A stretch of DNA of 64,000 nt from Escherichia phage AV118, in sequence record OR352948.1. One strand, 5' to 3'. Under the pieces are notes generated by a model. It saw only the letters and a program-made list of their open reading frames with translations, was not told the DNA's origin and did no database searches. Below, piece by piece: positions 2,491 through 56,343 of this stretch (the stretch's first letter is position 1; the number at the start of each line of letters is the position of its first letter). Made by a program: the position numbers and the translations under genes.

Positions 2491-3816
2491 TCAAAGTGCC
2501 TCCAAGTCTTTAGTGTACTCTGTCACAACATCAGTAGACTTCCAATACTCATTTTCTTCTTTCTTAGCTTTAGCTTCTTCTGCTAGTTTACGTGCTTCAT
2601 CGGAAGTGATATGGAAGATGTTAAGACCTACCAGTTTATCGACATGTTCTTTATACATTTCGATTTGTGCGAGCTCTTCAGTCAAAGCTTTACGAGTCTT
2701 GCCCTGAATCACAATTTCGCCGTTGATAACTTTTTTGATGAAGTGTGCCTTAGCAAAAGCCAGTTTAAATGCTTTTTCAGATTCAAGGATTTTGTTGTCA
2801 ATACGTTTCTGAACGTAAGTCTTACGGACTTCAACAAAATCTTTGATTAAGTCCACTACGTTATCGTAGACAGCTAATTTACCCTTTTCATTAATCACTG
2901 TGATGTTTTGTGAACGACGTTCGATGAGACTAAAATCTTTCATGATTTTTTCATGACGTAGCTCTTCATCATCAGGAAGCGAGTACTCTTTACGGAACTT
3001 CACCTTAAACCCAAAGCCGTGTTCACCGCAATCATCTTCCCATGAGATTAGACCTTTGTCTTCCAACGGGTCAAGAACCTTACTCACATACGTTTCACGG
3101 TCGAATTTATATGGGATTTCAGTTATCTGCATTTGAGTGCGAGATGTGAACTTATATGTTCCGTGAATCTCATAGCGCCCATCAACTTCATGTACTTCAC
3201 CACGGAATTCCGGGAATTCAACTTTTGGCTTAGTGACATTTTTACCTTGAAGAGCTTGTAATACAGCCTTTTTGACTGATTTAAAACTATGAGGCAGAAT
3301 ATTTGTTGCGTAACCGGTTGCAATACCAGAGACACCATTCAAAAGAACTGTCGGAATAATAGGAAGATAGAATTTTGGTGGAATGTGTTCTTTATCTTCA
3401 TGAGCTGGAGCATATTCAGTATCTTTATATACGTTATAGAAATTTTTACTTACACGAGCAAAAATATAACGAGATGCTGCAGCTTTTTGGACTGTTCGAG
3501 AACCAAAGTTGCCTTGACCATCTAACAGTGGATAGTTGTTGTTCCATGTGTTAGCCATCAATGCACCTGCATCTTGTGCAGAAGATTCACCATGGTGATA
3601 ACCTAAATCGGCAACACCACCCGCAATTGACGCAAGTTTATGAAATTTTTCTTTATTACCACGAGCCAAATCTAACGCACGATGGACCACAAAACGTTGA
3701 ACCGGCTTAAATCCATCAATCATGTTTGGGATTGCACGGTTTTCAACGGTGTACATCGCATATGCTAAGGCTTCGTTATCAATAATACTTTTTAGATTAC
3801 GAGAATTCAATTGCAT
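2491..3816 (-). CDS. 52: DNA topoisomerase II medium subunit gp52 (GyrA-like N-terminal domain, 441 aa)
   Basis: Type IIA topoisomerase A-subunit motifs (PNMIDGFKPVQRFVVHRAL; active-site region ARVSKNFY); size matches T4 gp52. Confidence 0.9.
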   Translation of the reverse strand: MQLNSRNLKSIIDNEALAYAMYTVENRAIPNMIDGFKPVQRFVVHRALDLARGNKEKFHKLASIAGGVADLGYHHGESSAQDAGALMANTWNNNYPLLDGQGNFGSRTVQKAAASRYIFARVSKNFYNVYKDTEYAPAHEDKEHIPPKFYLPIIPTVLLNGVSGIATGYATNILPHSFKSVKKAVLQALQGKNVTKPKVEFPEFRGEVHEVDGRYEIHGTYKFTSRTQMQITEIPYKFDRETYVSKVLDPLEDKGLISWEDDCGEHGFGFKVKFRKEYSLPDDEELRHEKIMKDFSLIERRSQNITVINEKGKLAVYDNVVDLIKDFVEVRKTYVQKRIDNKILESEKAFKLAFAKAHFIKKVINGEIVIQGKTRKALTEELAQIEMYKEHVDKLVGLNIFHITSDEARKLAEEAKAKKEENEYWKSTDVVTEYTKDLEAL

Positions 3817-4159: not shown

Positions 4160-4606
4160 TTAATAACTCTGCAGAATGAATTTAAAGTTATCAGCCAGAA
4201 GACGGTTCATTTCAGTGAGTGTTTGATATTCTGATGTATGGTTGCGAGTGAATGCCAGAGCCAATTGACCTTTACCGTAACCAGTGGTCAGTGGTTTCAT
4301 GTTCTTAGCTGCAACAAAGATTACATCATATTCAATATTGTTAGTGCCCATGGTACGGGCTAGTTGCGAACGGCCTTGACGAATGTGAGAAAGAATTGCA
4401 TCCAACCCTTGTTTAGAACGTTGACGTCCTACAAAGAATCGTGCTGCAACTTGACGCCAGTCGGATGAACCTTTAACAAAGAAGTAAAAACCTTCACGAG
4501 AACGAAACTCTTTAGAAACTTCAGAACCGTATTCACCATTACGAACTACTGCAACAACTTCACCGCCAACTGCCAGAAGGTCTTTACGAGTTAAATATTT
4601 GGACAT
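4160..4606 (-). CDS. ndd: Ndd-like nucleoid disruption protein (148 aa)
   Basis: Size and position between rIIB/denB region and gene 52; C-terminal LALAFTRNH...[12 protein letters not shown] segment resembles T4 Ndd from memory. Confidence 0.5.
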
Positions 4607-9742: not shown

Positions 9743-10843
9743 TTACGCTGTGAAGATTTTATCCCACATCGCAACAACTGCATCTCGATTATACTTCTTC
9801 CATACTGCTTCAGCACGTTTAACTCGAGCTTCGTATGTGTCAGTGAATTCTAATACAGCTTTTGTGTAAAGCGCAACTACTTCTTTCTTAGGAGTAGAGG
9901 AATCAATTTCTACACGCACAGTATCTGGGTCGTATTCGAATGTCGCATGAGGATAATCCTTAAAAACTAACTGGATTACAGGGACACCTTTAGAGATGGC
10001 TTCAATAGAACTATTCTCTACCGTACCTGTGTCAGGACACGTATTAATAAGTGCTTTAGCTGTTTTAAGACGTTCCATGATTTCACTGTGTGGAGCATCA
10101 ATAATAACAGGATATTTAGCTGGTGGTGCCCATTTACTAGGACAGTATCCTACACCATTTTCGCCTAGTGCTTTAATCGCTTCAAGAGCAACATCAGTAC
10201 GACGCATTTTAGTGTCATAACGTTGGGCACTAATAATCAAATCAGTTGCTGGGAGAACTTCTGGCTTTTCGGTCAAACAAATAACCGGGTAGTCATCATG
10301 TTCAAATAATGGATTTTCACGCCAGTAATCATAATCAATGCTATCAGTAAGAGCTGAAGTCATATGGCAATATTTACGTTCAAATTCACGGAATGCTTTA
10401 GTAGGAGCATAGCTCTTACCACCGTATTTGTGGGTAAGAATAGTTTGTTTCCAAATTTCTACAATACCGCGAGATACAGGCTCAAATGGAGTTGCCATAA
10501 AATTTCTATGAACACTGGATAAACCGGCATCTTTAATTGCGTTAACAGTTAGTTTAGTCGGTTCCATAGTAACAACAAAATCGTATTCATGGATGCCGGC
10601 TAGTTCAACAATCTTACGAGCCATAGTATAACTCATACCTAGACTGAATTTAGTCAGATGACCAACAGGATGATGATTAACTTTCCAGTCACCAAACGTG
10701 TCATTATCAAAGCCGATATAATCAATATCAGCACCGATGGACACAAGATATTTCAACACATTTAAATGTACTGCTTCAAGGCCACCTTGTACACGGTCAG
10801 GATTAAATGGGACTGCACGAGATGGGATAAACATAACTTTCAT
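9743..10843 (-). CDS. GT-B fold glycosyltransferase (GT4-like, 366 aa); candidate DNA hydroxymethylcytosine glycosyltransferase
   Basis: N-terminal MKVMFIPSRAVPFNP..GGLE and C-terminal ENSSIEAISKGVPVI motifs typical of GT-B/GT4 enzymes; AAGG Shine-Dalgarno; sits between rIIA and 39. Confidence 0.6.
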   Translation of the reverse strand: MKVMFIPSRAVPFNPDRVQGGLEAVHLNVLKYLVSIGADIDYIGFDNDTFGDWKVNHHPVGHLTKFSLGMSYTMARKIVELAGIHEYDFVVTMEPTKLTVNAIKDAGLSSVHRNFMATPFEPVSRGIVEIWKQTILTHKYGGKSYAPTKAFREFERKYCHMTSALTDSIDYDYWRENPLFEHDDYPVICLTEKPEVLPATDLIISAQRYDTKMRRTDVALEAIKALGENGVGYCPSKWAPPAKYPVIIDAPHSEIMERLKTAKALINTCPDTGTVENSSIEAISKGVPVIQLVFKDYPHATFEYDPDTVRVEIDSSTPKKEVVALYTKAVLEFTDTYEARVKRAEAVWKKYNRDAVVAMWDKIFTA

Positions 10844-10860
10844 AATTAAGCCTTATTAAA

Positions 10861-10887
10861 ATTAAAATGAAGCTCCCGAAGGAGCTT
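10861..10887 (-). terminator. C(UUCG)G hairpin terminator overlapping stop of the HNH gene
   Basis: Plus aagctcc-cgaa-ggagctt. Confidence 0.45.
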
Positions 10888-11684
10888 AGGACATCCAACA
10901 CATTTTATAACCTTTGCAGGTTCTGTTAGGATTATTTAATGCTTTCAATATATTAGAAGACCCTATATCTAAATACTCCCTTAATTCATAAAGATAGTTA
11001 AAATCAATAGTTTCACCTGTTTTTACACTTGTGATTCTTATAGGCCTTCTTTCATATTTAGATTTATACAACTCTCTAGTCTTAGCTTTAGTTTCTTCTG
11101 ACCTAGGAGTGTATGGTTTAAATCCTTTTGTTTTAAATGTTTCCATTCTTGATTTAGTTATTTTATCCTGGTGTTCTTTTGTTTTTACAGGTGCTTTTCG
11201 CCCATTCTCCCAAGATAACTTGTTGGCCTGTATTATTTTATCTATTGCTTCTTGCGTATGAGTTTTACCATAAAATGGATTTAATTCGCCTATACGTTGT
11301 GAAGCAATATGTGACATTAATTCTCTTGTTGCTTTAGTATGTTTTTTTACCTTTAAATGGATTGCCATTTTTAGCAATCCATTCTTTCATAAATCTAGAG
11401 TGCTCTTTAGAGAATTCTTGTTTAAGCCAATCATAATCTCTAGAATTTCTAGCTCCCATGTAAAAAGCTCTAATAGCCATAAGCATAGAACGGTTCTTAT
11501 GAATTTTATAAAGCAATAAATGGGCGATAAAATGCTCTCTAGGGGTCATTTTAACTAGATTTGATTTAGCATTACTCCCACCCATAGATTTAGGCAAAAT
11601 ATGGTGAGTTTCAGTATAATTAGGAATAGTGCTGCGGTTTTTAGCCGCAGCGATAAGTTTATCATAAATTTTACGATAATTCAT
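10886..11684 (-). pseudogene. HNH homing endonuclease (HNH N-terminal domain + NUMOD3 C-terminal repeats) disrupted by +1 frameshift in an A7 run (plus-strand T-run 11342-11348)
   Basis: ORFs 11334-11684 (HNH motif ETHHILPKSMGGSN...REHFIAH) and 10886-11377 (NPFYGKTH NUMOD3 repeats) are in frames offset by 1; removing one A restores a continuous NPFKGKKHTKATREL reading; ATG at 11684 shares TAATG with gene 39 stop. Confidence 0.55.
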
Positions 11685-13522
11685 TATCCTAGCATCCAAT
11701 CTTTACGGAGTTCAGGGTCGTTACCCATGAGCATTTCAAATAGTTCTTTCCAATTTTCAGGAAGTTTAACTACGTCGTACACAGGGTTTTGAATCATTTC
11801 TTTATATTCATCCCGCTGAAGTGAGCCCAATCCCTTGATGTATCGAATACTATGCTTAGGCAGTGTATCTTTAACTTCTTCATACTCAGCTACAGTATAA
11901 AACCATTTTTGAGTTTTGCCAATTTGTGCAATAATTACAGGCGTTTTAACAAAGCGAATACGTCCTTGTTCAAACAATTCAGGCCAATTACTAAAGAAAG
12001 CAAGCAAAGCCGGATAAATACTTCCAAGGCCGTCATGATCGGCATCGGTCATAATTGCAATATTACGGTAGTTCGTATTCTCTGCCTTTTCACCAAGAAT
12101 AAGACCCGTGATAGCACAGATATCAAAGAGCTCTTTGTTCTTCATCATATCGACATATGACATACCCCAGCTATTCATCACCTTACCACGTAATGGGAAT
12201 CCGCCGTGTAGTTCACGGTCACGAACATCAATGAGATAACCAATTGCCGAATCACCTTCTGTTAAAAACAATGTCGTATCTGCATCTTTACCACATTGGT
12301 TAGCTTTAATATGCTTATGAACCTTAGCTTTAGTTGCCTTTTTAGCTGCTTTAGTTTCTGCAGCCTTTTCTGCTGCCAATTTACGAGCTAATGCGGCTTC
12401 AATTATAGGCATTAAAACTGCTTCAGAATTCAAAATATTTTTTGCCAATTTTTTTGTATCTAATTTAATATGCGTCCGAATTTCGCCATAAGGACTTGTT
12501 AAACGCTCTTTGGTTTGGGAATCAAAACGAAGGTTCTTCATTCCACGAACGAACATTAAGAGAGTGAGACATTCCTTGATGCGCGCTTTAGTCACGTCGA
12601 TTTTATATTTGCGTTTAATAGCCGGAATTAATTCTTCGCAAATGTCGTCCATCACACATTCAATGTGATGACCACCGTTTTTGGTATGGATGTTATTCAC
12701 ATAAGTTAAATGACGGAAGCCATCTGGTGACCGTCCAATGGCAATAGAGCATCCGTCTTGTTCTTGAATGATGGTCTCTTCATCAAATTGTTTAGCAAAC
12801 TTCTTAAAGTTACCTTGAATCTTTTTGCCATTAAATTTAAATTCAATACCAGGATAAACGACCGCCAATGTTTGGAGCCGGTCTATAGTAATATCTTGGT
12901 ATATTTTTTCAAATTGATTCATTTCAAAATGTGAGAAATCAGGAATAAACTCGACCTTAGTACCGTTGTTTTTAGACGGCTTAGATTTCCAAGAAATATT
13001 ATCAGCGTTATTAGAACAATTAACGGTCAATTCATTTTTACCATCTGAAGTAGTGCCAACAAAAGAGACAGAAAAAATATTTGTTAATGAAGAACCGACA
13101 CCGTTTTGTCCACCCGTAACACGTTCTTTGTCGTCACCAAAGTTGCCACCGGCTTTTGTACGTGTCCACGCCGCAACTGGTCCTGGAATTTCTTCTCCTT
13201 CAGGAGTAATAACTGTTTCTTGAGGAATACCTCGACCATTATCTTCAACAGTCACTTTATTAGAATTTAAATCAATACTAACGGAAATTTTATTAGCATA
13301 TTTGAAATTGGTTCGAATAGCTTCGTCTACTGAGTTGTCAATAATTTCATCAATTAATTTGAGAACACCTGCAACATATTTAACCTTTTTAAATTCACCG
13401 AATAGGAAACGTTCTTGTTCTTCATTGGCAACACTTCCAATATACATGCCAGGACGCTTCAAACAATGCTCTTTATCAGATAGCATTTCAATTTTATTAT
13501 CAATCATTAGATTTTCTCTCAA
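11684..13522 (-). CDS. 39: DNA topoisomerase II large subunit gp39 (GyrB-like ATPase + TOPRIM; contiguous 39+60 equivalent, 612 aa)
   Basis: GHKL ATPase and TOPRIM motifs (PGMYIG, EDNGRGIP, LTEGDSA, DADHDG). Confidence 0.9.
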   Translation of the reverse strand: MRENLMIDNKIEMLSDKEHCLKRPGMYIGSVANEEQERFLFGEFKKVKYVAGVLKLIDEIIDNSVDEAIRTNFKYANKISVSIDLNSNKVTVEDNGRGIPQETVITPEGEEIPGPVAAWTRTKAGGNFGDDKERVTGGQNGVGSSLTNIFSVSFVGTTSDGKNELTVNCSNNADNISWKSKPSKNNGTKVEFIPDFSHFEMNQFEKIYQDITIDRLQTLAVVYPGIEFKFNGKKIQGNFKKFAKQFDEETIIQEQDGCSIAIGRSPDGFRHLTYVNNIHTKNGGHHIECVMDDICEELIPAIKRKYKIDVTKARIKECLTLLMFVRGMKNLRFDSQTKERLTSPYGEIRTHIKLDTKKLAKNILNSEAVLMPIIEAALARKLAAEKAAETKAAKKATKAKVHKHIKANQCGKDADTTLFLTEGDSAIGYLIDVRDRELHGGFPLRGKVMNSWGMSYVDMMKNKELFDICAITGLILGEKAENTNYRNIAIMTDADHDGLGSIYPALLAFFSNWPELFEQGRIRFVKTPVIIAQIGKTQKWFYTVAEYEEVKDTLPKHSIRYIKGLGSLQRDEYKEMIQNPVYDVVKLPENWKELFEMLMGNDPELRKDWMLG

Positions 13523-14182
13523 ATTGCATGACTATATTTTTGTATGAACCTTCCGGAAATCCACGTTTAATGCTTTCTTTAGCAAATTTCCCAACCTTTG
13601 GTTTATCCAATTCTAACCATAATTTATATAAAGCAGATTCATATTCCCATACAGGACTTTTACGATTTTTAAGCCCACACTTTATAAGCACTTCCTTTGT
13701 ATGTTTCTTATTATAAAATGGATTGTTTTTGCCACTCATTGCTTTAGAATGTTCCGGGCGCTTAATTCCATACATCGGATTAAGATCGCCTTTCTTGATA
13801 ACGGATTGTAGTTCAATAGTTTCTTCAGAGTGATTGTGTCCATAAAATGGATTTAACTCTTTTGAAACATCCATACCAAAGCACCCATCGACTGTGGCAT
13901 AAGACATGTTGAAAAATTTTTCAGATTTAACCACATTATGCAATTTCTGGTAATACAACTCACAAAACGTCGCTTCTTCCCGTGTATCAAATTCGCCAAT
14001 AATACATGAATCAAATAAATGAGGATTATCTTTTATCTCTTTATCATAAATTTGTTTATATTTTTCGACTTTACCGTACCATGATAGTGATTGTTTGTAT
14101 GTTTATTAAGATAAGTAGACCCTATATAAAACGGTGGCAACTTATCGCCTGTGTATATTGTTAAGTATGTTATGTATTTCAT
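13500..14182 (-). pseudogene. GIY-YIG (Seg-like) homing endonuclease disrupted by -1 frameshift in an A5 run (plus-strand T-run 14061-14065)
   Basis: ATG at 14182 encodes MKYITYLTIYTGDKLPPFYIGST... (near-identical to N-terminus of intact Seg-like gene at 48570-49373) then stops after about 44 codons; downstream frame continues ...KYKQIYDKEIKDNPHLFDSC... into the NUMOD3-repeat ORF 13500-13958; restoring one A rejoins the frames. Confidence 0.55.
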
Positions 14183-14210
14183 AAAGGTATTCTATCATCC
14201 GAAATCTAAA

Positions 14211-14230
14211 GCAAAAAGGGCCGAAGCCCT
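14211..14230 (-). terminator. C(UUCG)G hairpin + U-run
   Basis: Plus caaaaa-agggc-cgaa-gccct. Confidence 0.45.
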
Positions 14231-14652
14231 TATTTAAATTTAATTTTCTGAAGTGCATCAATTGCAGCCAAACGCCCTTGTTCACTTTTAACTGTAATGA
14301 CCACATCACCTGATACGATCACCGAACCATCAACAAATTCTATAGAGCCTTTTTTGAAATCGACGGCTGTATCTGATTCAGGAACTTCTTCAAAGAATTT
14401 AAATTCTGCACCATAAAGCAGAATATCACCTTGCATACTAATGATTGTACGTCCAGGTCCATCGGTTTCAGCGGCAATCATTGAAACACCATAACCAATC
14501 ATCTCTTCTACAATAAAATCTCTTGATAATAAAACTGTATGCAGAGTAGTGTTAAGACGTTTACCAGTCGTATTAAGAATTCTCAAGAAATTATCTTCTT
14601 GTCCTTTGATAATACGATATTTCTTACCAACTTCAAAACCTTTAAAAGCCAT
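14230..14652 (-). CDS. hypothetical protein (140 aa)
   Basis: Minus-strand ORF. Confidence 0.45.
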   Translation of the reverse strand: MAFKGFEVGKKYRIIKGQEDNFLRILNTTGKRLNTTLHTVLLSRDFIVEEMIGYGVSMIAAETDGPGRTIISMQGDILLYGAEFKFFEEVPESDTAVDFKKGSIEFVDGSVIVSGDVVITVKSEQGRLAAIDALQKIKFK

Positions 14653-16544: not shown

Positions 16545-17000
16545 TTAAGCTTTACGAGGAGACACATAGCGAGTGATTTCAGATTCTTTAACAACTCGGA
16601 AGTCACCTAAGAATACAATATTGTATAACTTTTCACCATCTTCAACCCATTGGTCGCTAATGAAGCCACACATAGTATCAGTTTTGCTTGGATAACCGTA
16701 TTCATCGATGAAGTCAAATTCTTTATCAGTCTGGAATTCAACACCTTTACACAAGGCCCATTTGAACTGTACATTAGGTTCAGTAGAAGCAGATGGAGTG
16801 CTCACACGAGTTTCCAGGAATTTAGGACTTACGTAAGCGTACTGAGTATCCTGACGTCCAAAACTAGGAATGATTCGAACTTTAACTTCTTTAATACGTC
16901 CCATGCCATTTGTGCGAAGTCCGACAACTTCAACCAGACGACCTGCAGCTTTAGAACGAGAAGCTGTCGATACACGTTTAATTTCACCAATATTAATCAT
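16545..17000 (-). CDS. hypothetical protein, tandem paralogue B (151 aa from ATG at 17000)
   Basis: ATG at 17000; paralogous to 16116-16535. Confidence 0.5.
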   Translation of the reverse strand: MINIGEIKRVSTASRSKAAGRLVEVVGLRTNGMGRIKEVKVRIIPSFGRQDTQYAYVSPKFLETRVSTPSASTEPNVQFKWALCKGVEFQTDKEFDFIDEYGYPSKTDTMCGFISDQWVEDGEKLYNIVFLGDFRVVKESEITRYVSPRKA

Positions 17001-17030
17001 ATTTTTTCTCTCTTTGTTTAAGTTGAATTC

Positions 17031-17060
17031 ATTATACTCCAACCATCCTTGGTTGTAAAC
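17031..17060 (-). promoter_or_regulatory. T4-early-type promoter (GTTTAC-N18-TATAAT) with caacca/tggttg inverted repeat in spacer; 27-nt core repeated at 60056-60082
   Basis: Read on minus strand. Confidence 0.5.
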
Positions 17061-33961: not shown

Positions 33962-33985
33962 ATTATATACTCAATTTGTAAAGCT
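33962..33985 (-). promoter_or_regulatory. Candidate MotA-dependent middle promoter for gene 42 (AGCTTTA box, 11 nt, TATAAT)
   Basis: Box/spacing resembles T4 middle promoters. Confidence 0.3.
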
Positions 33986-34124
33986 TATTTGAATTTCTTG
34001 ACAATGTTGATATAACGTAAAGCTTCAGCATCGATACTTCCAAGAACACTATGAAGAAATGCGTCAGCGTAGTATTCCAATTGAACAGGTTTCTTTAATC
34101 ACTTTAGCCGCTTTAGTTTTAAAC

Positions 34125-34144
34125 AGGCCCATCAGGGCCTTTTT
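34125..34144. terminator. Hairpin aggccc-atca-gggcct followed by T5 on plus strand (terminator-like)
   Basis: Read directly; orientation ambiguous. Confidence 0.3.
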
Positions 34145-34221
34145 AAGAATTTGTTCGTTAGTGTTCAGTTTAATAGTCAAAATCTCTTCGTTAAGTTTAT
34201 AATTAAAAGTTTTTCTAGAAA

Positions 34222-35382
34222 TCATTCCGGGTACCTCAAAGCGTCATCAGAGTTAGTTATATCAATAATAGATATAGAGTTTTCTGCTAACCCGTTTTTA
34301 GATAATTGACGTTTATAATATCTTTCACAATATGTACACGTCGTCCCGCAGATTTCATTAGCACAATCGAAATCTGGATGTCTGAACCACCTTTTTTCTA
34401 AAAAGCCATCTAACAAAGAGGTTTCAATATTTACTGTATGTGAAAACTCAGTTTCGTTTTCAAGAGTGAAAATGGTCTCTAAAGGCTTCCACAGTTCTAA
34501 CAAATTACCTTCAAACTTTTCAGAAGCGTATGCTTCAAGAACTTTCAAAATGTAGTCTGTGCTACCTGTACGTCCTGAAACTTTGAATTGAGTGATACCA
34601 ATATCATTATAAAGTTTCAAATCTTGAGGACGAACAAAACGAGTTCTCAACCAGTTAAATGGGTCTGTATCACGAGCTTTAATACAGTGCTGCATAGGAT
34701 ATCCGTTTAAGGATTTAGCATCATCAGCTGTAACATCAGTACTATGGAAAATATAGCAAGAGTCACGATAGCTACAATGTGTTGTATACCCTTTACCAGC
34801 ATTAGAACAGAACTCATTTACAAGAACTTCAAATATTATATTGTTCTTATTGCAAAACTCTGCTGCACGCTTCAGGAAAGAAACTGAACGGTTCTTATGA
34901 ATTCCACAGCAGACCTTTTTGATATTATATTGGTCATGCAAGTATTTGATTTGAGTTACAGCATCGACATGTAGAATTGTTGAAACTTCAATCTCAATGT
35001 CTTTATTGACTTCACGAACAATTTCCATAACAACAGGGTTAGCGATAGTAATACGCCATACGCCTATTGACCAAAGATACTGAACATAATCCTGAATAGC
35101 TTTCTTCTTCCACTCAACTAGTTCTCTTTTTGAACCAGGATTTATCGTGTTGAGTGTATAGTTAAAGCAAATACCTAATTCGTTACAACGTTTAACGTAA
35201 TCTTCTAACATCTTTTTGTCAACGTCAGGAAGCCTAAAATCAGGTCTGGCTGCTACAAAAGCCATTTCTCTTGTAGAGCCGTATACTTCGTTTATCAAGC
35301 TATTAGGATAAGTTTTATTGAGCTCTACGATTTTATCAAGAAGAGCTAAATCAAAATTCGTTCCAATTTTAAAAGTATTCAT
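34222..35382 (-). CDS. Cys-rich enzyme of unknown function (386 aa from ATG at 35382; ORF track GTG start 35397), possible Fe-S / U32-peptidase-like TIM-barrel protein
   Basis: C-terminal CxxxCxxC (CGTTCTYC) plus further Cys pairs; N-terminal VYGS...ARPDF...ELGI.F.YTLNT pattern reminiscent of U32 family. Confidence 0.45.
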   Translation of the reverse strand: MNTFKIGTNFDLALLDKIVELNKTYPNSLINEVYGSTREMAFVAARPDFRLPDVDKKMLEDYVKRCNELGICFNYTLNTINPGSKRELVEWKKKAIQDYVQYLWSIGVWRITIANPVVMEIVREVNKDIEIEVSTILHVDAVTQIKYLHDQYNIKKVCCGIHKNRSVSFLKRAAEFCNKNNIIFEVLVNEFCSNAGKGYTTHCSYRDSCYIFHSTDVTADDAKSLNGYPMQHCIKARDTDPFNWLRTRFVRPQDLKLYNDIGITQFKVSGRTGSTDYILKVLEAYASEKFEGNLLELWKPLETIFTLENETEFSHTVNIETSLLDGFLEKRWFRHPDFDCANEICGTTCTYCERYYKRQLSKNGLAENSISIIDITNSDDALRYPE

Positions 35383-35438
35383 TTTTTTGCATCTCACGTT
35401 AATTGATGCGATGGTTTTTGCAGGTCTTACTTAAATTA

Positions 35439-47554: not shown

Positions 47555-48573
47555 TGTGTTGCCTCAATATAAAGTTCGTTGGAATATTTGACCAGCGCTT
47601 CTCTGTCTTCATCTGAGATATCTGGAATCGCGTCAATATATTCTTTAATGATATCTTGAAGTGATTTAATCTCGATTTCCTGGTCGTCATCAGATTCAAC
47701 ACTGTTATCAACTTTAGAAACCATACGAAGAGAGTGAACTACTTTTTCAAGTTCAGATTCAAACTTAGTCAACTCTGAATCAATTTCTGATACTATAACA
47801 CGTACGGCTAGATTAGTATAATCAGAATAATTGATTTTGCCTTTAAATGGATAAGTGATTCGTCGATGCCATGTTGTTTCATTAGGAATAAATTCCATAC
47901 GTTCAACATCAGTGTCAAATACCCAGAATCCGCGAGGGTCGTTCTCATCACCTGCAGTAAGGGTCCATGGTGTCCCAATATATTTGACGTTAGCAGCTTC
48001 AGAGATTGTGTGGAAGTGGCCAGACCAGACTTGTTTATAGGTCTTTAAGAAATCAGGTTCAAGCCCATGAGACTTCATTCCTTTATAGAAATAGAAGCCA
48101 TTTAATTCCCAGTGCCCAACACAATACGCTGCAGAAGAAGTCTTGATGTGCTCTAAGATTTCACCTGTATTTTCTTCACACATCCATGGAATCAAATCAA
48201 TCAAGCACCCATCAAAATCTACTGTAGTTGGCTTATCATAAATTATTACGTTTTTACGATGGCTCAATAATTCTTGAACAGTGTTAGGATATAAGGTTGT
48301 TTTATAAAAGAGATCATGATTCCCAAGTATTGTATGGACTGTTATACCAGCGGCTTCCACCAAATCAAACATTTCACGCGTGAATTCCATACAACGTTGT
48401 GTGGTGTGGGCTCTGACATCAAATGTATCACCATATTGAATCCATGTTGTTATTCCATTTGCGACGGAATAGTCGATCATTTGTCTGAAACCGTCACGTT
48501 GTATAGCTTGAATCCAATCGTCGTCTTTTTTGACGCCTAGATGCAAATCGCCTATATTAAGTATTTTCATCAC
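47551..48573 (-). CDS. 47: Recombination endonuclease subunit gp47 (Mre11/SbcD-like phosphoesterase, 340 aa)
   Basis: Calcineurin-like motifs DLHLG, GDTFD, GNHD, GHFH. Confidence 0.9.
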   Translation of the reverse strand: MMKILNIGDLHLGVKKDDDWIQAIQRDGFRQMIDYSVANGITTWIQYGDTFDVRAHTTQRCMEFTREMFDLVEAAGITVHTILGNHDLFYKTTLYPNTVQELLSHRKNVIIYDKPTTVDFDGCLIDLIPWMCEENTGEILEHIKTSSAAYCVGHWELNGFYFYKGMKSHGLEPDFLKTYKQVWSGHFHTISEAANVKYIGTPWTLTAGDENDPRGFWVFDTDVERMEFIPNETTWHRRITYPFKGKINYSDYTNLAVRVIVSEIDSELTKFESELEKVVHSLRMVSKVDNSVESDDDQEIEIKSLQDIIKEYIDAIPDISDEDREALVKYSNELYIEATQ

Positions 48574-49373
48574 ATACCTTTAAATTTGGAGTAAATTATA
48601 TTGTGGTACGATATATCAGGAAACCCTTTATCGACCGCAATTTTTCTAAACTTATTAGGACTTATTTTACCACACTCCATCCATAATGCAAACAACTCGT
48701 CAAAATGCTCATATGCTGGACCTCGACGAGCTTTTGACACAGCAGCACTTATGCGAGCCTTTTTCTCAGAATCAAGGTTTTTAAGAGAATTACTTATTTT
48801 ATTTTTTTGCTCTTCTGAATTGAAGGTGCCTTTTTCCCAGCCTAAAGGTTGGCTTCCTTCATGGAACATTTTTCTTGAAGTTCCATTGGTATACCATATT
48901 TTACCTTTATTGTGCCCTGATGCTTTATATTTTGGTGAGCGTCCTTTTATAAATCCTTCAGGTATAGTAGGAGCAAATGTTTGTTCAAGGGTTTCTGGGT
49001 TATACGAATGTATGTTATTTTTGGCGTTATGAGACCCATATAATGGGTGATTTTTACCAGAAACATCACGCCCAAAGAAACCAGTTGGTGATGCCAAAGA
49101 CATATTCATATACAAAGGATTTTTATGAGCTTGAACTCTAATTTGATAGTCCTTTTCCACCTTTAAAGCTTCTTCTCGTGTTGGATGTTCGCTCAAAATA
49201 CAAGAATCAAACAACGTAGGATTTTCTAAAAGTTCTTTGTTATAAATTTTACGATAGGCTTTAGATAGAATAGTACCATGATACCCGTTTAAATGTTTTT
49301 CTAAGCTAGTCGAACCTATGTAAAAAGGTGGTAGCTTATCTCCAGAATAAATTGTCAAATAGACTATAAACAT
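48570..49373 (-). CDS. GIY-YIG (Seg-like) homing endonuclease with NUMOD3-type repeats (267 aa from ATG at 49373)
   Basis: YLTIYSGDKLPPFYIGST GIY-YIG motif; AAAGGAG Shine-Dalgarno; own promoter 49398-49427. Confidence 0.6.
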   Translation of the reverse strand: MFIVYLTIYSGDKLPPFYIGSTSLEKHLNGYHGTILSKAYRKIYNKELLENPTLFDSCILSEHPTREEALKVEKDYQIRVQAHKNPLYMNMSLASPTGFFGRDVSGKNHPLYGSHNAKNNIHSYNPETLEQTFAPTIPEGFIKGRSPKYKASGHNKGKIWYTNGTSRKMFHEGSQPLGWEKGTFNSEEQKNKISNSLKNLDSEKKARISAAVSKARRGPAYEHFDELFALWMECGKISPNKFRKIAVDKGFPDISYHNIIYSKFKGM

Positions 49374-53717: not shown

Positions 53718-55531
53718 TGGTGTTTAACCCTATGCATGATTTCTTTATTTTTACCGAGATTAAATCCGCGTTCGTTCGGATTTCCCAAATAACCGCATGT
53801 TCTTCTTATGGTGTTCATCTTTTTAGGATCAGTTTCTCCACAGATAGAACAAACAAATCCGTTTTCAGTAGGAGTCATTTCATGGGTACTTCCACATGTA
53901 AAACATTTATCTACTGGCATATTAACACCAAAATAATCTAAATGTTGTGCAGCATAATCCCACACGGCCTCAAGTCCTTTTAAGTTATTTTTCATATCAG
54001 GAAGTTCAACATAAGAAATGTGACCACCTGTCGCAATGAAATGATATGGCGCTTCACGAGAAATCTTTTCAAACGGAGTAATATTTTCTTCTACTGAAAC
54101 GTGGAAACTGTTAGTGTACCAGCCTTTATCGGTAACATCTTTTACACTTCCATATTTTTCTGTATCGAGTTTACAGAAGCGATAACAAAGGTTTTCAGCA
54201 GGAGTCGAATATAAACTAAAAGCAAATCCAGTTCTTTCGGTCCACTGCTTAAGATGAGCATTCATTTTAGTTAAAATTTCTTGCCCAATATCACGACCGA
54301 CAAGAATATTCAATTCGTGAATACCAATGTATCCTAAAGACACTGAACTTCTACCGTTTTTAAATAACTCAATTATGTCGTCATCAGGTTTAAGACGAAC
54401 CCCGAATGCACCTTCTTGGTAAAGAATAGGAGCTACAGTTGCTTTAACACCCTTTAAAGAACTAATTCTACACATCAAGGCTTCAAAACACAGATCCATT
54501 CGTTCATTGAATAATTCAACAAATTTCTGTTCATTGAACTGTGTTCCAATATAAGAATCTAATGCGATACGAGGAAGATTCAGTGTTACAACGCCGAGAT
54601 TATTACGACCGTCAAGAATTTCATTTCCAGTTGAATCTTTCCATACGCTCAAGAAACTACGGCAACCCATCGGAGAAACTGGAACTGAAGAACCGGTAAT
54701 AGCTTTATTATTCTTAACTGAAATAATGTCAGGATACATTCTTTTGCTTGCACATTCTAACGCAAGTTGTTTAATATCATAGTTTGGATCATCTTTATAA
54801 AGATTAACACCTTCTTCAAAAAACATAACAAGCTTAGGGAAAATAGGAGTTATTCCATCACGTCCAAGGCCTTTAATGCGGTTTTTAAGAATTGCCTTCT
54901 GAATCATTCGTTCAGTCCAGTCAGTTCCTGTACCAAATGTAATTGTTACAAAAGGTGTTTGTCCGTTTGAACTAAAGAGAGTATTTACTTCATATTCATA
55001 AGCTTGGAATGCATCGTATACATCTTTTTCTGTTTTAGATTGAGCATAATTCAACGCATCAGCGATTTGCCATTTTTCTGCATCCTCAATATGTTTTGCA
55101 TAGGTGCGTTTAACATAAGGAGAAAGTACTTTATCTACATTAGCAAAAGTCGTTCCGCCGTATTGATGGGAAGCAACCTGTGCAGTAATTTGTGCCATAA
55201 TTGCAGTAGCAACACCGATTGATTTAGGAGTTTCAATCTGTGCATTACCAAGCTTAAATCCATTCTCAAGCATTCCTTTTAAATCTACTAAACAGCAATT
55301 AGTAAAAGGCAATGATATACTGTAATCTAAATCGTGAAAATGAATTAATCCGACATTATGAGCATTTACAATATGGCTCGGAAGAATACTACAAGCGATA
55401 TGTTTAGAAACAATACCGGCCATTAAATCTCTTTTTGTTGGAAAGACACGAGAATCTTTGTTGGCATTTTCGGTATTTAATTCTTTATCTTTATTTGAAA
55501 TAAAATTTAAAACATCTTTCTCTAAAGACAT
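53714..55531 (-). CDS. nrdD: Anaerobic ribonucleoside-triphosphate reductase NrdD (605 aa), uninterrupted
   Basis: C-terminal zinc-ribbon Cys cluster and glycyl-radical region; size as T4 NrdD. Confidence 0.9.
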   Translation of the reverse strand: MSLEKDVLNFISNKDKELNTENANKDSRVFPTKRDLMAGIVSKHIACSILPSHIVNAHNVGLIHFHDLDYSISLPFTNCCLVDLKGMLENGFKLGNAQIETPKSIGVATAIMAQITAQVASHQYGGTTFANVDKVLSPYVKRTYAKHIEDAEKWQIADALNYAQSKTEKDVYDAFQAYEYEVNTLFSSNGQTPFVTITFGTGTDWTERMIQKAILKNRIKGLGRDGITPIFPKLVMFFEEGVNLYKDDPNYDIKQLALECASKRMYPDIISVKNNKAITGSSVPVSPMGCRSFLSVWKDSTGNEILDGRNNLGVVTLNLPRIALDSYIGTQFNEQKFVELFNERMDLCFEALMCRISSLKGVKATVAPILYQEGAFGVRLKPDDDIIELFKNGRSSVSLGYIGIHELNILVGRDIGQEILTKMNAHLKQWTERTGFAFSLYSTPAENLCYRFCKLDTEKYGSVKDVTDKGWYTNSFHVSVEENITPFEKISREAPYHFIATGGHISYVELPDMKNNLKGLEAVWDYAAQHLDYFGVNMPVDKCFTCGSTHEMTPTENGFVCSICGETDPKKMNTIRRTCGYLGNPNERGFNLGKNKEIMHRVKHQ

Positions 55532-56343
55532 AATTCTAATTTATCCTTTTGAAATTCTTCGTCTAAATATGGGTTCCAACCCATTTTAAACCTTTTGATG
55601 AAATTATCAATTCTAAATTTCGGTAAATTTAACTCCGCAAAAATAGATGATTTACTTTTAAAATCTGGACCTAAATAATCATATAAAATTTCTGCGTATT
55701 TTAACCATAATATATAAGTACCAGATTTAATTGCTCTAGGAGTTTTCCAAGGTTTTACGCCGTACATCGGATTTCCACTTCCTTTATGCCTGATAGAAGA
55801 TGAAATTCCAATTTTAATTTTAGCTTCCTTTGTGTGCGAAAATCCATGATGTGGATTTTCTTTCCAGTATTTTTTAGAAGCTTCTGATATTTTCTTTCTG
55901 GCTAAATTAGTATGATGCTTTCCATAAAATCCATGATTTTTACCTTTATTACGATTTCTTTTAATCATGGTTATTGATTGCTTTTCTCTAGTTTCTTTAG
56001 AAGGAGAAACACCGTACGTTGTAAATTGACCATTAGCATATGCTAAATTAAAATACTCTTTATTCCATATATCTTTTTCTATATTCTTTTGAAATTCAGC
56101 TTCAATGCTAGTTATTTGTTCATCTCCGACTAATTGAAAATATAATATTTCAACTTTCGGTGTTTCTTTCAACAGAGCTTTTTGAAATTCGGAAGATGAC
56201 GAAGACGAATAATAAAATTTACCATTTTTATCAATAATATTCGTTCCGTCAAAAGTGCAATTGGTTTTACTTCCAATATAATAATATGGCGGGGTTTTAG
56301 CATTAATTCTACTAATAAATGATAGTTTATATACTACATTCAT
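55522..56343 (-). CDS. GIY-YIG (Seg-like) homing endonuclease (273 aa)
   Basis: VYKLSFIS...PPYYYIGSK GIY-YIG motif; NUMOD-like repeats; ATGA coupled to gene 49. Confidence 0.6.
   Translation of the reverse strand: MNVVYKLSFISRINAKTPPYYYIGSKTNCTFDGTNIIDKNGKFYYSSSSSSEFQKALLKETPKVEILYFQLVGDEQITSIEAEFQKNIEKDIWNKEYFNLAYANGQFTTYGVSPSKETREKQSITMIKRNRNKGKNHGFYGKHHTNLARKKISEASKKYWKENPHHGFSHTKEAKIKIGISSSIRHKGSGNPMYGVKPWKTPRAIKSGTYILWLKYAEILYDYLGPDFKSKSSIFAELNLPKFRIDNFIKRFKMGWNPYLDEEFQKDKLELCL

Follow-up and report, generated by a model that had tools for sequence, protein, structure and literature searches.

Two homing endonuclease genes with single-base frameshifts flank topoisomerase gene 39 in the sequence of Escherichia phage AV118

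In the sequence of Escherichia phage AV118, gene 39 retains an intact reading frame between two frameshifted endonuclease genes, a seg-like GIY-YIG gene upstream that lacks one base in an A run and a MobA-like HNH gene downstream that has one base too many in another. Our preferred explanation is that both are free-standing homing endonuclease cassettes and that both were probably disabled by real slippage mutations, a reading to which we assign a probability of roughly 0.66. The features on which this reading is built are collected in Table 1, with positions given in the window, that is, the whole 64-kb stretch of AV118 DNA that was analysed. By megablast the window is that of a Mosigvirus, an RB69-like T-even phage, and the closest record is Escherichia phage AV109, with 99.8% identity over positions 10800-14300 and 98.9% over positions 1-52444. 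The minus strand of the region carries rIIA, a glucosyltransferase-like gene, the unsplit gene 39, goF, cef, motB, dexA and dda.

Table 1. Features of the gene 39 region of AV118, and a further seg-like gene, with positions in the window
Feature	Position	Strand	Description
Terminator-like hairpin	10870..10887	-	Ends the seg-39-HNH transcription unit
MobA-like HNH homing endonuclease gene	10886..11684	-	799 nt; intact form 798 nt, 265 aa
A7 run (T7 on the plus strand)	11342..11348	-	1 nt inserted here; GGT AAA AAA CAT in intact relatives
Gene 39	11684..13507	-	Topoisomerase II large subunit, 607 aa; unsplit, mosaic
Free-standing seg-like GIY-YIG homing endonuclease gene	13500..14182	-	683 nt; intact orthologues 684 nt, 227 aa
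Longest downstream-frame seg ORF	13500..13958	-	152 aa from a TTG without Shine-Dalgarno; holds N92, the NUMOD3 repeats and the C-terminal helical domain
Truncated N-terminal seg ORF	14033..14182	-	49 codons; GIY and YIG motifs kept, E49, E75 and N92 lost
A5 run (T5 on the plus strand)	14061..14065	-	1 nt deleted here; TCG AAA AAA TAT (S-K-K-Y) in intact relatives
Predicted MotA-dependent middle promoter	14189..14215	-	MotA box TTTGCTTTA at 14215-14207, 12-nt spacer, -10 TAGAAT at 14194-14189
Terminator-like hairpin	14216..14231	-	Ends the gene upstream of seg
Intact seg-like gene downstream of gene 47	48570..49373	-	267 aa from ATG

Anatomy and identity of the upstream endonuclease gene

The seg-like ORF starts at an ATG at 14182 on the minus strand, begins MKYITYLTIYTGDKLPPFYIGST, and overlaps the start of gene 39 by 8 nt at its other end (ATGATTGA). 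Its first frame comprises 40 native codons and 9 out of frame and closes at a stop at 14033-14035, so that the N-terminal module is 49 codons long and not the 44 or so of the first-pass annotation; the remaining coding sequence lies in a second frame, which stays open as far as the stop at 13500. The same annotation had located the split in the A run at 14061-14065, and the relatives bear this out. AV109, HX01, G2285 and CEV1 all have an uninterrupted ORF of 684 nt and 227 aa with A6 at this place (four of four in the alignment), and putting one A into the AV118 run restores an ORF of 227 aa. In the five-way alignment the missing A of AV118, where the run reads GTCG-AAAAA(A)-TAT, is the sole indel. 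Four further relatives, AV114, AV115, AV116 and JM10, span 1102 nt compared with 1101 in the AV118 window, and the seg genes of AV114 and AV115 give full-length tblastn matches in a single piece. As the frameshift after codon 40 removes E49, E75 and N92, the 49-residue product cannot be an active nuclease. The 152-aa downstream ORF is probably not translated.

Motifs and predicted fold support the earlier assignment of the gene upstream of gene 39 to the GIY-YIG type. In an alignment of 67 homologues drawn from a large protein collection, the invariant residues are Y10, G12, P16, Y19, I20, Y33, S39, E49, F57, A71, E75 and N92. The two signature motifs, LTIYTG (with Y10) and PFYIGS (with Y19-I20-G21), fall on strands 3-10 and 18-24 of the structural model. 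The counterparts of the Glu and Asn of I-TevI (E75 and N90) are E75 and N92 in the restored and orthologous proteins, and both are absent from the 49-residue product of AV118. Where I-TevI R27 would be expected, no invariant Arg is seen in the 67-sequence alignment; Y33 and G35 are conserved there. An AF2 model of the seg protein (pLDDT 90.8) predicts a GIY-YIG alpha/beta fold, with I-TevI as its top fold match, and a profile built on the 67-sequence alignment matches the I-TevI DNA-binding domain 1i3j. NUMOD3 (Pfam PF07460) is found in the restored protein in three stretches, at 43.1 bits against a cut-off of 20.4, and PHROGs place the protein among homing-endonuclease families. TIGR01453, the model for group I intron endonucleases, is matched at 2.8e-5, which is under its cut-off.

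The general GIY-YIG model is of little use for this family. Pfam PF01541 gives no match at E <= 0.01 for the restored seg protein, a precomputed match to it occurs in none of 120 seg homologues, and the related gene at 48570-49373 scores 17.8 bits, under the cut-off of 22.6. A single-sequence PDB search of the seg protein likewise did not recognise the GIY-YIG domain. PF01541 is silent because the seg-like family is too divergent for the model, and membership therefore rests on fold and motifs. Taken together, the motif pattern, the PHROGs placement and the profile match to the I-TevI domain point to a modular I-TevI/Seg-like GIY-YIG endonuclease, predicted to consist of an N-terminal nuclease, NUMOD3 repeats and a C-terminal helical domain.

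The upstream gene has relatives elsewhere in the genome. The first-pass annotation regarded the gene at 48570-49373 as an intact and near-identical paralogue. It is indeed present and intact, but near-identity with the restored seg protein is limited to the first ~23 residues; overall identity is 38%, with the similarity mostly in the N-terminal half. This makes the gene a member of the family rather than the product of a recent duplication. The genome has a third seg-like gene, also intact, at 55522-56343.

Insertion sites and the mosaic of gene 39

The seg-like gene follows closely on a predicted middle promoter, a call made from the T4 consensus, and its ATG comes 6 nt after the -10 hexamer. 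The predicted promoter is common to RB69, which has no seg gene, and the same layout is found in Bp7, TG1 and Mexia. From the hairpin through the -10, the flank upstream of seg is identical in seg-carrying and seg-less Mosigvirus. What comes after the -10 differs: in RB69 and phi25-307 there is a short leader, a GAGGAG ribosome-binding site and then gene 39, and in AV118 and its relatives a 680-nt endonuclease ORF. The upstream flank is matched by 163 records and the Mosigvirus seg gene by 9 (at least 97.7% identity), together with two Bp7 records at 76%. Orthologues of seg also lie upstream of gene 39 in Dhakavirus (Bp7, IME281), in Tegunavirus (TG1), in a Providencia phage (Gualtarvirus) and in Klebsiella phages, and some of them are already annotated as GIY-YIG homing endonucleases.

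On the other side, the start of the HNH gene overlaps the stop of gene 39 (TAATG). The gene is the 798-nt gene of AV109 with A7 for A6 and zero substitutions, and A6 is also found at this run in phi25-307 and fPS-90, so the earlier report of a homopolymer frameshift in the gene across gene 39 holds. The broader statement that both flanking genes carry the same kind of lesion is right in that each has a single-base change in a homopolymer, but the sign is opposite, -1 in seg and +1 in HNH. The HNH frameshift parts a nuclease piece of 116 aa from a NUMOD3 DNA-binding piece of 160-163 aa. The HNH motif is THHILPKSMGGSNAKSNLVKMTPREH; the protein matches phrog_655 (1.3e-55), its N-terminus is homologous to the remnant of T4 mobA, with 53% identity of the HNH domain to the T4 mobA region over 45 aa by tblastn (1.5e-10), and Pfam HNH_4 scores 16.7 bits, under the cut-off of 22. 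Between AV118, a Mosigvirus, and fPS-90, a Tequatrovirus, the gene is >99.5% identical. Among the 27 phage records with the stretch around the run, 25 span 83 nt (A6), ECO111 5-P spans 82 nt, with a run of A5, and one alignment is incomplete; the A7 allele is found in none of the 27. The same A7 does occur, on a different SNP background, in the Logan assembly of SRR25936345, which holds a phage without the seg cassette and with a gp39 of 605 aa.

Between the two cassettes, the identity of gene 39 to other phages changes in steps. Compared with seg-less Mosigvirus, the gene 39 of seg-carrying phages has only 60-80% identity over its first ~1100 nt, rising to 93-100% (mostly 96-100%) over the ~600 nt that follow. 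The last 130-330 nt are 98-100% identical among HNH-carrying phages of two genera, and the last ~130 nt show only 84% identity when compared with HNH-less phages. Double-strand-break-initiated homing with co-conversion of the flanks has been described for the seg and mob genes of T4 (PMC2988022, PMC2330249). Judged from these identity patterns, the mosaic tracts beside each cassette resemble a co-conversion footprint, which suggests that cleavage and homing may have taken place here as well.

Slippage mutations and their alternatives

The proposed course of events begins with an intact, promoter-less seg cassette, placed after the middle promoter and ahead of the gene 39 coding sequence. From the analogy with T4 Seg we infer that the intact enzyme would cleave co-infecting phages without the cassette in the region of gene 39, and that repair of the break by recombination would carry the cassette into them along with the adjoining gene 39 sequence. 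A replication-slippage deletion from A6 to A5 would have shifted the seg frame after codon 40, with loss of the catalytic Glu and Asn, and the MobA-like HNH gene would have been disabled separately by a change from A6 to A7. On this view, both endonuclease genes would be selfish elements that have entered the decay phase of the homing cycle.

Care must be taken with lesions of this type, as homopolymer length is a classic assembly error. The phage may really have A6 in both genes and functional endonucleases, the frameshifts being homopolymer miscalls, an alternative that we consider unlikely yet far from negligible. Both differences are of one base, in A runs of 5-7 nt, and the sequence around them is 99.8-100% identical to that of AV109, whose ORFs are intact; two errors would also look like two single-base lesions in near-identical sequence. 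The A5 allele of seg is, moreover, unique to AV118 and absent from all other records searched, including IMG/VR and JGI metagenomes. Pattern scans of these two collections returned no seg copy of either run length and a single HNH copy, that of phiE142, with A6, and exact-protein look-ups gave no match for gp39 or for any of three fragments, the seg pieces of 49 and 152 aa and the HNH piece of 160 aa. Curators may also have mended frameshifts in recognisable genes only, which would mimic a signature of selection. Miscalls fit poorly, however, with where the indels fall. Over 52 kb compared with AV109, frame-breaking indels affect just three annotated genes, the two for endonucleases and a small, dispensable ORF of 79 aa, although the window holds 258 other coding homopolymers of at least 5 nt (out of 300, of which 30 are non-coding and 12 belong to the endonuclease pair); under random error, the probability that four run-length changes miss all 258 is ~4e-4. 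The remaining isolated 1-nt indels relative to AV109 (35382, 52471, 52519, 63147, 63501 and 63515) lie between annotated genes. The indel in the 79-aa ORF, a homologue of RB69ORF049c, is an AV118-specific change from AA to AAA at 34090 and not a long-homopolymer miscall, and HX01 has broken the same ORF independently, by a 39-nt deletion (that the two phages have the 34090 indel in common was ruled out by direct alignment). The HNH run is found naturally as A5, A6 and A7 in three independent data sets, and a per-run error rate high enough to produce this would put many frameshifts in every genome. Changes specific to AV118 further include two nonsynonymous substitutions in seg as against one in the whole of gene 39. 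Because the frameshifts spare other genes, the run length varies and seg has extra substitutions, real mutation is favoured, and the chance that both frameshifts are real mutations in the DNA can be put at about two in three.

Slippery A runs could also act at the level of expression, with ribosomal frameshifting, transcriptional slippage or a reversible run length providing endonuclease at a low but nonzero level. A7 permits perfect +1 re-pairing of tRNA-Lys, three natural run-length alleles of the HNH gene exist, and T-even phages are known to restrict the expression of homing endonuclease genes tightly (PMC2988022). We nevertheless regard recoding as very improbable: every other seg copy and about 20 copies of the HNH gene have an unbroken frame, so that the shifted arrangement is not a conserved one. 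The A6 of seg amounts to two Lys codons in an AT-rich genome, and in Bp7, TG1, Mexia and PSTRCR_127 a G or another base breaks up the run. Programmed frameshifting in particular was rejected for lack of conservation among orthologues, both of the shift and of the A run, and G AAA AAT does not fit the canonical X XXY YYZ pattern of a -1 heptamer. Runs of 5-7 A are short for efficient slippage by RNA polymerase, and low-level slippage on A7 is conceivable but unsupported. On analogy with bacterial contingency loci, the Lys-Lys A runs might instead be hypermutable switches by which a costly nuclease is silenced and re-activated repeatedly. Such a switch, to which we give a slim chance, would explain both the A5, A6 and A7 alleles of the HNH gene and the finding of both cassettes off in one genome.

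Comparison with known homing systems and significance

With slippage mutation as the preferred reading, AV118 can be set beside the homing systems of T4. Like SegA-SegG, the seg-like gene is an intergenic, promoter-less cassette in an existing transcription unit whose ORF overlaps that of its neighbour, and it is present or absent in close relatives together with a divergent, co-inherited flank (PMC2988022, PMC2330249). It differs from the T4 Seg proteins in its low similarity to them, the best match being ~27% to a segA-annotated gene; the site upstream of gene 39 is not among the T4 seg sites, and the AV118 copy is frameshifted. In contrast to I-TevI, the endonuclease of the T4 td intron, it is not intron-encoded, and identity to that enzyme is ~19-20%. 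The HNH gene comes directly after the gene 39 ORF and overlaps its end, as does T4 mobA at gene 39/60, and the T4 RefSeq record annotates mobA as defective, just as the AV118 gene is broken. In T4, however, the mobA cassette divides the topoisomerase gene in two (39 and 60) and is accompanied by a 50-nt bypass, whereas in AV118 the HNH gene follows a full-length gene 39 and there is no bypass element.

The homing life cycle of invasion, fixation, degeneration and loss, for which the defunct I-TevIII of T4 is one example, provides the wider frame. As in that cycle, the reading frames of the nucleases are broken and the host gene is intact, and intact, broken and empty alleles coexist in close relatives (PMC2790892, PMC2988022). 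The lesions of AV118 differ from advanced decay in being single and very recent, with no deletions and almost no further decay. AV118 is, in short, an ordinary example of a T-even phage whose homing endonuclease genes are decaying (or were mis-assembled). Our literature search found no paper on the seg-like family upstream of gene 39, which appears experimentally uncharacterised but of a well-known kind.

The case matters little beyond annotation, where the "hypothetical" fragments that flank gene 39 can now be read as parts of two homing endonuclease genes. The seg-like family itself is widespread in Straboviridae, with members in Mosigvirus, Dhakavirus, Tegunavirus, Gualtarvirus and records of Klebsiella phages, and its cleavage site could readily be mapped with the intact copy of AV109 or HX01. 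In the AV118 lineage, gene 39 is a three-part mosaic that appears to have been shaped by two endonuclease genes, and, if the frameshifts are real, AV118 would offer a naturally occurring double knock-out with which to test for marker exclusion around the topoisomerase gene.

The seg start and its predicted middle promoter

Seg-like endonuclease genes occur elsewhere in the window as well, where two further ones are both intact (table). At seg itself, Mosigvirus, Bp7, TG1 and Klebsiella phage Mexia all place the ATG 6-7 nt 3' of the −10 hexamer. A MotA-box-like element lies 5' of the hexamer in the window, TG1 and Mexia, where no Shine-Dalgarno sequence precedes the ATG. Given this spacing and the missing Shine-Dalgarno sequence, the seg middle transcript is predicted to be leaderless. 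Phages that lack seg have the same promoter; their leader is ~25 nt long, and gene 39 is served by a GAGGAG site.

Coordinates of the features discussed
Feature	Sequence	Position
Intact seg-like genes (first, downstream of gene 47; second, flanked by nrdD and gene 49)	window	48570-49373; 55522-56343
seg start region	window	14183-14215
	Bp7 (L012)	2926-3000
	TG1 (L017)	126-200
	Mexia (L018)	126-200
gene 39	window	11684-13507
gp39 N-terminus	RB69 reference (L007)	4235-4330
MobA-like HNH gene	window	10886-11684
	fPS-90 (L011)	2865-3662
	Logan SRR25936345 (L013)	3001-3799
HNH-gene A run, variant phages	ECO111 5-P (L015)	510-520
	Logan SRR25936345 (L013)	about 3330
RB69ORF049c homologue	window	33985-34225 (indel at 34090)
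T run	window	35382-35388
391-aa ORF	window	34222-35397
motB-like gene	window	16545-17042
length differences from AV109	window	16783-16797 (net 9 nt); 17022-17037 (net 27 nt)

Length differences elsewhere in the window

A third window-specific frameshift affects the homologue of RB69ORF049c (79 aa), in which AA has become AAA on the minus strand, splitting the gene into ORFs of 53 and 31 aa. The same gene is also broken in HX01, by a 39-nt deletion, and so it seems dispensable. A T run immediately 5' of the 391-aa ORF's start codon, beside the ribosome-binding region, is polymorphic in length: the window has T7, AV109 and RB69 have T6, and HX01 has T8. The motB-like gene carries clustered in-frame length differences relative to AV109, both inside the gene and at its start.

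Gene 39 and the adjoining HNH gene

Gene 39 is a mosaic of three parts. Its first ~1100 nt are foreign, with 60-80% identity to seg-less Mosigvirus and their closest match in Dhakavirus Bp7 (73-85%). Over the middle ~600 nt, identity to RB69 is 93-100% (mostly 96-100%), and the final 130-330 nt, at 98-100% identity, are common to HNH-carrying phages of two genera. The gp39 N-terminus reads ...DVEPLLRNRMVCILVLSAKE in the RB69 reference and ...DVEHIKKRSGMYIGSSAKEA in close relatives, a difference apparently owing to compensating indels in the RB69 sequence of 2003.

The HNH gene is >99.5% identical between the window Mosigvirus and Tequatrovirus fPS-90, and in the same cross-genus comparison the adjoining gene 39 is only about 57-78% identical over most of its length, which points to very recent spread of the HNH gene between genera. 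One A run in this gene is found as A5, A6 and A7 across independent phage sequences; judged by this variation, the run is a recurrent frameshift hot spot.
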